A DNA stretch of 64,000 nucleotides, taken from NCBI RefSeq assembly GCF_036507355.1, contig NZ_AP027877.1, one strand, 5' to 3'. Made by a program: the position numbers. Of this stretch, positions 55,701-58,700 are shown one piece after another. This stretch comes from Escherichia coli (GTDB taxonomy: Bacteria > Pseudomonadota > Gammaproteobacteria > Enterobacterales > Enterobacteriaceae). Each line of letters begins with the position of its first letter. Position 1 is the stretch's first letter.

Positions 55701-58700
55701 ATCAGGAGATCCTGAAAAACGAGCTGGCAGAGAAAGAGAAAAATCTGGCCTTGTTGCTGGACTCTGTAGCGAACGATAAAGCTGCCCTGATTGCGAAATC
55801 TCGCGATACCTTTATTCGTCTGCTGAACGCCACCCCGAACGGTGTGATCCGCAATTCCGACGTGGCAAAAGGTGTGGTCGAAACCTCCCTGAACGTCGGT
55901 GTGGTGACCATGACTGACAATAACGTAGAAATTCACTGCCTGATCCGTTCTCTGATCGACAGCGGTAAAGACTACGTGGTGAGCATGCTGGATTCGCTGG
56001 GTAAACTGGCTGGCGCGAAAACCGAAGCGAAAGGCGCATATCCTGGCTGGCAGCCGGACGCTAATTCTCCGGTGATGCATCTGGTACGTGAAACCTATCA
56101 GCGCCTGTTCAACAAGACGCCGAACATCCAGATTATCCACGCGGGCCTGGAATGTGGTCTGTTCAAAAAACCGTATCCGGAAATGGACATGGTTTCTATC
56201 GGGCCAACAATCACCGGTCCACACTCTCCGGATGAGCAAGTTCACATCGAAAGCGTAGGTCATTACTGGACACTGCTGACTGAACTGCTGAAAGAAATTC
56301 CGGCGAAGTAATTATTTGATTTGCTGCCGGATGGCGTTTAATCGCCTTCCGGCAGTTTCATCCTTCATTATCCTTCGATAAAAGCCATCCCTGTGAACGT
56401 TCGTCGCGGGTTGCCACGTTCAATCTGGTGATGGAACATTCGCCGCTGCGATTTCAGCGCCGCGCTATTTTCCTGTTGCTGCTGCCCCAGCTTCCAGGCA
56501 ATCAGCAATCGCGCCAGCCGTTTGTTAGCATGCTGGCTGCGCTCTGACTGAACCTTCACGCTAATACCGGATGCCAGATGCGTGGCGCGTACCGCCGAGT
56601 CGGTTTTATTGACATGTTGACCGCCCGGCCCCGACGAACGCAGCGTCTCATAACGGATTGCATCCGATTGTTCCTGCTCATCAGCGGTAAAACGCCCAAT
56701 GCCCAGAAACCAGTTTTTGCGCCCATGATGAGGCCGATACGGACTCGGACAAATCCACTGAATAGTGCCGCACCAACTTTCGCTTAATGCCCATGCGTTA
56801 TCGCCATCCAGAGAAATCAGCGCCGAACGCAGCGTGTCAGAGTAGCGGCCTGTTTCTGTTTCCAGCACCGTTACCGCGACGTCTTGTCGGGTAAAAACGA
56901 CCAACAGAGAAGAACGCTGCGCCAATCGGGTAGCCGCGTCCGGGGTGTAAATCTGGCATCCCCACTACGCGCTGCATGTTGGGTAAATTTGCCGTGGTGT
57001 GTAATTGTTGGATCGCTAAACTCTCGATCCACAGGTCATCAGATGCGATAATAAATACCGCATCGGATAAGGGACGAATATATTTGCCCATGTACCATTC
57101 CATTTATACTCGTCATACTTCAAGTTGCATGTACTGCGACTGCGTTCGTTCACCCCAGTCACTTACTTATGTAAGCTCCTGGGGATTCACTCGCTTGTCG
57201 CCTTCCTGCAACTCGAATTATTTAGAGTATATAAATATAAAAATCAGGAAATGGCAGACGAATCCAGGGCAAGAAAAAAAGAATTAATCCTGGAAAGATC
57301 TGCAAAGAGTCATTGATAAAGGATTTGTCATGATTTACCTCCTTGCAGTTTGTGGAATAAGAAAACGCGCACATACCAGGCGGGCGTTATTTTCATTGCA
57401 AGCTGGATTTAATGTTGCGGTTTATATCGCATATAAAAATTAGTAAACCAAGCTCCACGGCATTCAACGCGCTGCTGCTTAACTGTCTGAAAACCATAAC
57501 GTTCAAAAAAGGGTTTTGCGGTTATGCTGGCGTCCACCGTAAGTTCGGATTCAGACTTAATCAAAGGTTTTAACAAAGCGCTGGCAACCCCACGGCGGGT
57601 GTATTCAGGGTCAACAAATAACATATCGATATAATGTTCAATGCGGGAAATAAAACCAACCGGTTGTGCATTAATGACTGCAACCCGCACTTGTGATTTC
57701 GCGAGTTTCTCCTTCCAGCGAGATTCGTCAATCTGCGCCCAGGCGGCAATTTGTTGTGGTGAATAATGCTGACTGGCGGTCATCGTAACCGCTCTAATGA
57801 AAATAGCGCATAGTTGCTGAAAATCGCCAGGCTGATAGTTTCTTATTTGTATGTTATTCATAATCCCAACACCAGTTGTCTTTCCATTTGCGGGTCAAGC
57901 AACGTCACGTGCAGCCCCACCAGACGCACACCTCGCCCGCCGCGGCGTTCATCCCAGGTTTTACGCGCGGTGGCGATTAAGTCAGCTTTATTCAGCCGCG
58001 GCCAGACGTGCTCCTGAGTGGTTTGCTGAAAATCGTCGAACTTTAATTTCACTCCCTGGCGAGCAATCAGTAAATCAGGTTTTACCTTTGCCAGACGGCG
58101 TTCAAGTTCCGGATACAGCCGCTCGATAATCGCTTCACATTCAGACCAGTGATGAATATCTTCCGCCATCGTGCGTTCCACGCCGACGGATTTTCGTAAC
58201 CGTTCGCTGTTAACGTCGCGCTCGTCAATCCCCTGACTACGCTCCCACAAAATGCGGCCAAATTTGCCAAAGCGTTTAAGCAGAATCACCAGATCACACT
58301 TTTGTACATCACCGCAGGTCCGCAGCCCCATCGCTTCCAGCTTTGCCGCTGAGACTTTGCCAACACCGGGAATTTTTGCCAGCGGTAAGGTTTGCAGAAA
58401 TGCCGGAACTTCTGCCGGCGTAATCACAAACTGGCCGTTGGGTTTATTCATGTCGGAGGCGATTTTGGCGAGAAACTTTACTGGTGCCACGCCCGCAGAC
58501 GCCGTCAGTTGCAGCTCGCTGAAAATCGTCTGGCGGATTTCCTGGGCGATGAGGGTCGCAGAACCGTGGCAATGGACGCTATCGGTGACATCGAGATAAG
58601 CCTCATCCAGTGACAACGGTTCAATGCGCGAGGTGTAGCGCGAGAAGATTTCACGGATATGATTTGAGGCTTCTTTGTAGGCGTCAAAGCGCCCCGGAAG

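Follow-up and report, generated by a model that had tools for sequence, protein, structure and literature searches.

At the locus examined, the window (the whole 64,000-nt stretch of Escherichia coli DNA that was analysed) carries two adjoining gene fragments on the same strand, one derived from the RNA ligase gene rtcB2 and the other from prfH, which encodes a release factor-like protein. The features of the two fragments are as follows.

56888..57091, minus strand: 5' remnant of rtcB2 (K-12 ykfJ), codons 1-68 of 379
56368..56889, minus strand: 3' remnant of prfH (K-12 pseudogene b0236), codons 32-204 plus stop
56617..56625, minus strand: GGQ codons (peptidyl-tRNA hydrolysis motif), intact in the window
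56888..56891, minus strand: deletion junction with microhomology, 3-nt CCG or 4-nt CCCG

Identity of the rtcB2 and prfH fragments

An earlier note on this DNA had described an 88-codon RtcB-like N-terminal fragment that runs into a PrfH frame with a GGQ motif, and both reading frames were found where it had placed them, at 57103..56837 (-) for a mechanically called rtcB2-remnant ORF and at 56925..56368 (-) for a PrfH frame that is open from stop to stop. While the first ORF does have 88 codons and does match RtcB, only 68 of these codons are truly RtcB; four extra codons precede the conserved rtcB2 start (ATG at 57091), and the rtcB2 frame then enters prfH DNA out of frame and reaches a stop 16 codons later. 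PrfH-derived sequence begins at 56889 (codon 32), so that 53 nt (56889..56837) are shared by both frames.

The 88-codon ORF matches the NCBIfam model NF007153 (RtcB family; E 9e-31) with its residues 5-73, which cover positions 1-69 of 379; the match is not full-length, and its score of 107 bits falls short of the cut-off of 407. The ORF also matches the NCBIfam model TIGR03073 "release_rtcB" (E 9e-29), and in Pfam it matches the RtcB model at positions 1-33 of 426. By tblastn, residues 1-69 of E. coli W RtcB2 align at 57091..56885 with 95.7% identity. The assignment of the second frame to a GGQ-containing PrfH was borne out by the match of its residues 13-182 to positions 31-200 of 200 of TIGR03072 "peptide chain release factor H" (E 3e-82; 275 bits, above the curated cut-off of 166.65), by a Pfam match to RF-1 (E 2e-24) and by the GGQ codons at 56625..56617; compared with PDB 7SA4 chain 8 (Peptide chain release factor H, residues 32-204), the frame has the same amino acid at 172 of 173 positions. 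The family matches of both fragments are far beyond chance, and each fragment matches the PrfH or release factor-coupled RtcB models only over the part that is expected of a truncation. As the PrfH match starts at model position 31, and as codons 1-31 and the ATGA overlap are deleted, the second fragment represents a PrfH-derived pseudogene and not a PrfH gene. According to the earlier note, its reading would be contradicted by a PrfH frame of full length that has a start and ribosome-binding site of its own; such a complete PrfH, ~204 residues long and starting within an ATGA overlap with the rtcB2 stop, is absent from the window because the native prfH start codon and ribosome-binding site are gone. 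Another copy of rtcB2 or prfH was not found within the window either.

A 1,027-bp deletion relative to the intact operon

Comparison with the intact E. coli W locus (dinB-yafP-rtcB2-prfH-pepD), by blastn and base by base, identified exactly 1,027 bp as absent from the window, which supports the earlier proposal that an internal deletion had taken the greater part of rtcB together with the beginning of prfH. Two blastn segments, which overlap by 4 nt, link the window with the E. coli W locus (L083): 57141..56888 corresponds to 7718..7973, and 56891..56300 corresponds to 8997..9588. Alignment to intact loci, suggested in the earlier note as a way to map the endpoints, thus places the deletion from RtcB2 codon 69 through codon 379, the ATGA stop/start overlap and PrfH codons 1-31. 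In intact RtcB2, the region with homology to solved RtcB ligases extends over residues 102-373 and lies wholly inside the deletion; with residues 1-68 only, the window lacks the RtcB catalytic core. In a MAFFT alignment that used Citrobacter and Superficieibacter, the gap came out ~20 nt too early; this placement was superseded by blastn against the closer E. coli W.

The retained parts show 94.5-97% nucleotide identity to E. coli W, and the flanks of intact and deleted alleles differ by 3-5%. Among the coding differences from the intact E. coli W allele, 15 are synonymous and 3 are non-synonymous. This mostly synonymous pattern could be read as constraint and would be equally expected from pre-deletion divergence or recombination; the counts are uninformative with regard to constraint on the remnant, since it cannot be told which changes are older than the deletion and which are younger. 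The junction is that of a single 1,027-bp deletion between the short direct repeats (C)CCG, which probably arose through microhomology-mediated illegitimate recombination or replication slippage.

The sequence divergence in the flanks, together with polymorphism of other nearby indels (yafNO, Flag-2 and ERIC), could also be taken to suggest the reverse history, in which the short form came first and other E. coli gained the long rtcB2-prfH form by insertion or replacement via horizontal transfer. We consider this history extremely improbable. The intact pair occupies the same slot (dinB ... pepD-gpt) in six genera of Enterobacteriaceae (E. coli W, Citrobacter, Superficieibacter, Salmonella, Cronobacter and Kosakonia), and in the five genera other than Escherichia both genes are complete and overlapping; in addition, the breakpoints lie inside coding sequence at a microhomology, and gene ends cannot be older than the genes from which they originate. 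The outgroup synteny already effectively refutes an ancestral short form.

Programmed frameshifting is well known from release factor genes (prfB), and the 53-nt overlap of the two frames might, on this precedent, allow an RtcB(1-68)-PrfH(32-204) fusion to be produced by programmed ribosomal frameshifting at the junction. The overlap, however, contains neither a slippery heptamer nor a prfB-like internal SD-stop arrangement, 1,027 nt is not a multiple of 3, the junction is that of a plain microhomology deletion, and the downstream frame is destroyed in other lineages; such a fusion thus seems barely credible as compared to loss by deletion.

Function of the intact operon

Ribotoxins, e.g., colicin E3, cleave 16S rRNA between A1493 and G1494; studies on the intact operon have shown that PrfH occupies the A site of ribosomes stalled with this damage and sets the peptide free via its GGQ motif, after which RtcB2 rejoins the cut 16S rRNA in the released 30S subunit (PMC9304027, PMC9223846). 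The ribosome rescue and repair role that the earlier note had assigned to the pair agrees with this experimental literature. The intact module, as described for E. coli ATCC 25922, CFT073 and W (PDB 7SA4; Tian 2022, PMC9304027; Maviza 2022, PMC9223846), is orthologous DNA at the same locus; unlike this module, the window is without the RtcB catalytic region, the PrfH N-terminus and the rtcB2/prfH stop/start overlap, from which Baranov 2006 (PMC1586002) infers translational coupling. As the missing 1,027 bp include all three, the protective function of the intact module is not expected in the window.

A contig scan with the PrfH fragment yielded, among the matches listed, mostly distant RF1/RF2-type loci and none from Escherichia or Salmonella. 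Among these listed matches, an adjacent full-length RtcB2 was found only at loci L003-L010; at loci L011 and L012, RtcB2 was matched only weakly or in part.

The K-12 allele and its distribution in E. coli

The remnant has the same chromosomal position (yafP ... pepD), fragment lengths (a 267-nt ykfJ ORF) and junction as the K-12 pair ykfJ (b0235)/prfH (b0236), and 1,121 nt align with K-12 NC_000913.3 at 98.0% identity, with zero gaps and 22 point differences. K-12 differs in carrying yafN-yafO between dinB and yafP, which the window strain lacks. The closest complete genome here is that of strain A30 (99.7-99.8%, gap-free), and the O157:H7 sequence aligns with a single 1-nt gap. The counterparts in K-12 and other strains are marked as pseudogenes in RefSeq (by PGAP or curators), with PGAP treating the 204-nt equivalent as a partial RtcB pseudogene.

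The junction, counted as a one-piece match of an 81-nt junction-spanning query at at least 80% coverage, is present in 2,689 of 5,426 complete E. coli genomes (49.6%), among them K-12 derivatives and O157:H7, while the deleted interior, searched with a query of its own, is present in 2,715 of the 5,426; approximately half of sequenced E. coli still carry the intact operon. The finding that 5,320 genomes cover a 1,301-nt query was rejected as a sign of a near-universal deletion, as the junction and interior queries gave a split of ~50:50; the coverage figure is misleading because pieces ~1 kb apart are joined into one place. A second, frameshifting deletion of 169 nt, which removes the GGQ motif, is present in all three carriers that were checked for further damage, and ~700 genomes are without the segment covered by this deletion. 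That the junction is identical in about half of the complete genomes indicates a single old deletion, which is now a common presence/absence polymorphism. The population split thus frames rtcB2-prfH as a defence-like function that is commonly present or absent within the species, with secondary decay in some carriers.

Baranov 2006 reported that K-12 and O157:H7 have lost ~1,000 nt by deletion as compared with CFT073 (PMC1586002). Maviza 2022 found that BW25113 is sensitive to colicin E3, that its truncated operon gives no protection against this toxin, and that knockouts of the truncated genes have no phenotype (PMC9223846).

We considered whether a truncated PrfH of ~166-173 residues, with its GGQ domain intact, may still be translated from an internal start, e.g., the GTG at 56868 that is used as the start in the K-12 annotation, and may have retained a function, possibly as a minimal GGQ release or rescue factor. 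With an open frame of 173 codons that differs from solved PrfH by one residue, some expression from an internal GTG or TTG seems possible; the allele is also carried by about half of E. coli genomes, and, according to a reviewer's report published with Baranov 2006, Pel et al. 1992 originally suggested expression (PMC1586002). By contrast, no Shine-Dalgarno sequence precedes the candidate starts, a promoter scan of 56300-57450 found no sigma-70-like site, the 31 missing residues include a central beta-strand of domain 2, which the product of the deleted allele would thus miss (PMC1586002), and the BW25113 knockouts were without a colicin E3 phenotype (PMC9223846); the GGQ-removing deletion in three of three carriers checked also argues against selective constraint. 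We therefore regard a retained function of the truncated PrfH, including one as a minimal rescue factor, as very unlikely.

Overall, we are highly confident that the region is an inactivated rtcB2-prfH operon that represents the same allele as the K-12 pseudogenes ykfJ/prfH. By analogy with K-12 BW25113, the remnant probably yields no functional protein, and the colicin E3 sensitivity of the host should equal that of BW25113; the source strain is thus predicted to be, like K-12, unable to repair 16S rRNA cut by colicin E3-type ribotoxins. The identity and origin of the deletion remnant are already known: our analysis re-identifies an annotated pseudogene pair for which the deletion origin (2006) and the lack of function (2022) have been published, and the remnant matters little in itself.

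A candidate leader upstream of rtcB2

Upstream of the remnant, a leader ORF of 15 codons has stayed intact in the window; its RNA has alternative helices that overlap, and a repeat separates it from rtcB2.

57284..57344, minus strand: candidate leader, Shine-Dalgarno AAGGAGGT and 15-codon ORF encoding MTNPLSMTLCRSFQD
57254..57348, minus strand: helices P1-P3 of the leader RNA, predicted folds
57348-57339 pairing with 57309-57300, minus strand: P1, leader SD flank with leader codons 8-11
57303..57254, minus strand: P2, hairpin GCAGAU ... GUCUGC
just upstream of 57091, minus strand: P3, segment just 3' of P2 with the rtcB2 ribosome-binding region GGAAUGGUA
57105..57231, minus strand: ERIC (IRU) repeat, 127 nt, inserted between the leader and the rtcB2 start

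The repeat at 57105..57231 contains both ERIC PCR primer sequences, and its 72-nt core is absent from E. coli W and from an ST38 strain. The only notable Rfam match was a sub-threshold one to V_AS5 over 57109-57232. The 1,301-nt query, which contains the repeat, matched a median of 6 places per genome, a figure for the query as a whole that would fit a repeat.

The leader ORF starts with the ATG at 57331 and its stop ends at 57284. An SD-preceded ORF of 13-19 codons was found 106-187 nt upstream of rtcB2 at all 14 intact loci examined; the chance expectation, computed for the first eight of the 14 loci, is 0.09-0.24 per locus. Of the 8 MFE folds, 7 contain P1, as does the RNAalifold consensus. 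Compensatory changes between genera were seen for P2 and P3, and the three helices overlap pairwise. Per-sequence shuffle tests gave p values of 0.004-0.05 for P1, 0.03-0.18 for P2 and 0.02-0.84 for P3, and are thus strong for P1 only. A search of Rfam at a permissive E-value found no leader or attenuator family match in the region, and the promoter scan described above likewise found no sigma-70-like site; terminator-like matches in the region lie inside coding sequence and look like chance. Evidence for translation of the K-12 leader ORF was not found, and the leader peptide sequence is absent from searchable papers; with no description found in the literature, the enterobacterial rtcB2-prfH leader may be new.

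We tentatively hypothesize, as a possibility that falls somewhat short of probable, that the dead operon has kept an intact, conserved regulatory leader, which senses damage and thereby switches on the repair operon. In the proposed mechanism, the leader SD flank would pair with leader codons 8-11 (P1), leader codons 10-12 could alternatively pair with a downstream segment (P2), and that downstream segment could otherwise pair with the rtcB2 ribosome-binding site (P3). A ribosome stalled at or near the leader start codon, as reported for colicin E3-cleaved ribosomes, would hold P1 open; P2 would then form, and the rtcB2 ribosome-binding site would be freed. If true, the repair operon would be induced by the very damage that it repairs, and in the window the sensor would now control a pseudogene only. 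The leader ORF and the alternative helices thus suggest how intact operons may sense damaged ribosomes.

A similar arrangement is present in P. aeruginosa, where an RtcB-family gene (armZ, PA5471, RtcB-like) is followed by prfH (PA5470) and is preceded by a short leader ORF, PA5471.1, with alternative RNA structures; ribosome stalling on the PA5471.1 leader induces the operon (PMC12057347, PMC13041342). The 15-codon leader in the window is comparable to PA5471.1 in arrangement. ArmZ has a further role as an anti-repressor of MexZ, for which there is no counterpart at the enterobacterial locus. Pseudomonas loci from the PrfH-fragment scan were considered as an armZ control and rejected, as they represent hemA-prfA-prmC, i.e., RF1. 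While leader control in Pseudomonas has been described as transcription attenuation with terminators, the predicted helices of the enterobacterial leader are more suggestive of a sequestered rtcB2 ribosome-binding site.

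The rtcB2-prfH remnant

An earlier note read 56368-57103 as a degraded RtcB-PrfH module with an RtcB-like N-terminal fragment and a GGQ-containing PrfH frame, and open reading frames as well as NCBIfam and Pfam matches place both parts there. The module is flanked by pepD (54854..56311, +) and yafP (57409..57861, -), in the E. coli gene order frsA-gpt-pepD-remnant-yafP-dinB. Its features are:

57103..56837, -, short ORF of 88 codons (ORF reading)
56925..56368, -, long frame of 185 codons, stop to stop (ORF reading)
56625..56617, -, GGQ motif of the PrfH frame

Residues 5-73 of the short ORF match positions 1-69 of 379 in the NCBIfam RtcB-family model NF007153 (E 9e-31), and this ORF also matches TIGR03073 ("release_rtcB"); residues 13-182 of the long frame match positions 31-200 of 200 in TIGR03072 ("peptide chain release factor H"; E 3e-82, a score exceeding the curated cut-off). 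Pfam is in accord: the long frame matches RF-1, and the short ORF covers just positions 1-33 of the 426 in the RtcB model. The retained part of PrfH is identical to PrfH residues 32-204 of PDB 7SA4 at 172 of 173 residues.

The remnant is real, was correctly read, and is already known. RefSeq annotates the K-12 MG1655 equivalents as pseudogenes, i.e., ykfJ (b0235, 267 nt) and prfH (b0236), and lists "RtcB family protein, missing C-terminus" and "prfH, missing N-terminus", both pseudogenes, in strains A30 and O157:H7; the window aligns gap-free with K-12 (98.0% over 1,121 nt) and with A30 (99.7%). E. coli W carries an intact locus, dinB-yafP-rtcB2 (379 aa)-prfH (204 aa)-pepD, with an ATGA overlap between rtcB2 and prfH, and the order dinB-rtcB2-prfH-pepD recurs in Citrobacter, Superficieibacter, Salmonella, Cronobacter, and Kosakonia; because the same slot is occupied across these genomes, the intact pair is ancestral for Enterobacteriaceae at this locus.

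Deletion endpoints and distribution

The proposal that an internal deletion had removed most of rtcB and the start of prfH was borne out by blastn against the intact E. coli W locus (L083), which mapped the endpoints: window 57141..56888 corresponds to L083 7718..7973 and window 56891..56300 to L083 8997..9588, with 4 nt shared by the two segments and 1,027 bp missing relative to E. coli W. Base-by-base comparison of the rtcB2 breakpoint (TTTTAT-CCG-GCACTG), the prfH breakpoint (GCTGC-CCG-ACAAGA), and the window (TTTTAC-CCG-ACAAGA) puts the crossover inside CCG, or inside CCCG if rtcB2 originally had a TAC codon there. A MAFFT alignment with more distant genera had put the gap approximately 20 nt off and was superseded by this comparison. 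The losses comprise RtcB2 codons 69-379, including all of residues 102-373, the region homologous to solved RtcB ligases, as well as the rtcB2 stop/prfH start overlap and PrfH codons 1-31; the deletion length is not divisible by 3, so the rtcB2 frame runs through 16 out-of-frame codons to a stop at 56837.

Of 5,426 complete E. coli genomes, 2,689, including K-12, O157:H7, O55:H7, and ST38, matched an 81-nt junction-spanning query as a single segment, and 2,715 matched a Citrobacter query for the deleted interior; intact-operon strains include W and ST95-type strains. Junction carriers and interior holders together make up nearly all genomes, a roughly 50:50 polymorphism, and the single junction implies one deletion event. 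In an ST38 strain, 18KM2445, and 0H24 (L085, L086, and L087), chosen because they seemed more decayed in junction match or annotation, the prfH remnant carries a second deletion, a frameshifting one of 169 nt that takes out the GGQ region; the segment it removes, equivalent to window 56534-56698, is missing from approximately 700 of the 5,426 genomes, which fits ongoing neutral decay. Separately, the 4.83-Mb record NZ_CP026085.1 (H38), labelled "E. coli strain DH5alpha", has an intact rtcB2-prfH interior, unexpected for a K-12 derivative, which suggests a mislabelled strain or record.

Functional consequences

When 16S rRNA is cut in the decoding centre, PrfH frees the peptide from the damaged ribosome, and religation of the rRNA by RtcB2 follows (PMC9304027, PMC13166195). 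The intact operon shields E. coli ATCC 25922 from colicin E3; BW25113, with a truncated operon, is sensitive, and knocking out its remnants is without effect (PMC9223846). Baranov et al. (2006) found that K-12 and O157:H7, compared with CFT073, have a deletion of approximately 1,000 nt, and argued that any product would lack a central beta-strand of domain 2 (PMC1586002). We considered whether a truncated PrfH is expressed from an internal start, whether a frameshifted RtcB-PrfH fusion protein is made, and whether the short form is ancestral; none of the three has positive support, and each is contradicted by at least one of missing translation signals, the knockout data, secondary decay in some carriers, and outgroup synteny. 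We infer that the rtcB2-prfH remnant in the window is non-functional and arose by microhomology-mediated deletion.

A putative leader upstream of rtcB2

The sole element that might be new, and which lies outside the original finding, is a leader on the same strand as rtcB2, approximately 190 nt upstream of its start:

57331..57284, -, leader ORF of 15 codons encoding MTNPLSMTLCRSFQD, preceded by a perfect Shine-Dalgarno sequence, AAGGAGGT
57254-57348, -, leader-helix region, together with the rtcB2 ribosome-binding region near 57092-57100; three pairwise-overlapping helices (P1, P2, P3)

All 14 intact loci examined, from 13 genera (E. coli W, Citrobacter, Superficieibacter, Salmonella, Cronobacter, Kosakonia, Limnobaculum, Proteus, Pseudomonas sp. 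YH-1, Pseudoalteromonas, two Massilia, Conchiformibius, and Paucibacter), have a Shine-Dalgarno-preceded ORF of 13-19 codons at a distance of 106-187 nt upstream of rtcB2; for the first eight loci, 0.09-0.24 such ORFs per locus would be expected by chance. The architecture is similar to that of PA5471.1, the leader of P. aeruginosa armZ (RtcB-like)-PA5470 (prfH), which is of the leader-peptide attenuation type and responds to ribosome stalling (PMC12057347, PMC13041342); the window's leader looks like a comparable translation-sensing attenuator. The E. coli and Capnocytophaga PrfH/RtcB2 papers searched mention no leader, and an Rfam search found no family at the leader region.

In P1, which appears in 7 of 8 MFE folds and in the RNAalifold consensus, the flank of the leader Shine-Dalgarno sequence pairs with leader codons 8-11. 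P2 pairs GCAGAC with GUCUGC, with compensatory variants in Limnobaculum (GCAGGC:GCCUGC), Proteus (GCGGACA:UGUCCGC), and Pseudoalteromonas (GCAGGUC:GACCUGC), and in P3 UGCCAUUUC pairs with GGAAUGGUA, which lies immediately before the rtcB2 AUG, with variants UGCCAAUUC:GGAUUGGUA and UGCCAAUAC:GUAUUGGUA. As GCAG is common to P1 and P2 and UGC to P2 and P3, the predicted helices would compete with one another, suggesting a candidate switch. In Pseudoalteromonas the conserved UUUGCAG falls in a different reading frame, which suggests that the RNA rather than the peptide is conserved. Per-sequence shuffle tests gave p values of 0.004-0.05 for P1, which is convincing, 0.03-0.18 for P2 (moderate), and 0.02-0.84 for P3 (mixed); because of this uneven support, we treat the switch as a hypothesis.

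Neighbouring variable elements

Between the leader and the rtcB2 start lies a 127-nt segment (57231..57105, -) that we take to be a full ERIC/IRU repeat; it gave a sub-threshold Rfam match to V_AS5 (48.9 bits vs. a gathering score of 96). The short form, without the 72-nt ERIC core, occurs in both E. coli W (intact operon) and the ST38 strain (deleted operon), which shows that the indel and the rtcB2-prfH deletion are independent. The convergent pepD and prfH stops are separated by a 56-nt spacer, in which a GC-rich inverted repeat at 56323-56355 (ctgccggatggcg ... cgccttccggcag, 12/13 complementary) is probably a shared terminator or REP-like element; it was absent from the output of a simple terminator scan.

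At 57858-57861 the dinB stop overlaps the yafP start. As in E. coli W, these genes adjoin and lack the yafN-yafO toxin-antitoxin pair that separates them in K-12, O157:H7, and A30; dinB and yafP are contiguous in 2,569 of the 5,426 complete genomes. The window is thus K-12-like in its rtcB2-prfH deletion and W-like at the dinB-yafP junction. Finally, a lafU-like ORF (58984..59874, -) and a truncated FlhA-like ORF (59714..61453, +) at 58984-61453 appear to be what is left, in the K-12 form, of the Flag-2 lateral flagellar cluster (lafU/lfhA pseudogenes); at the equivalent position in E. coli W this cluster is complete.
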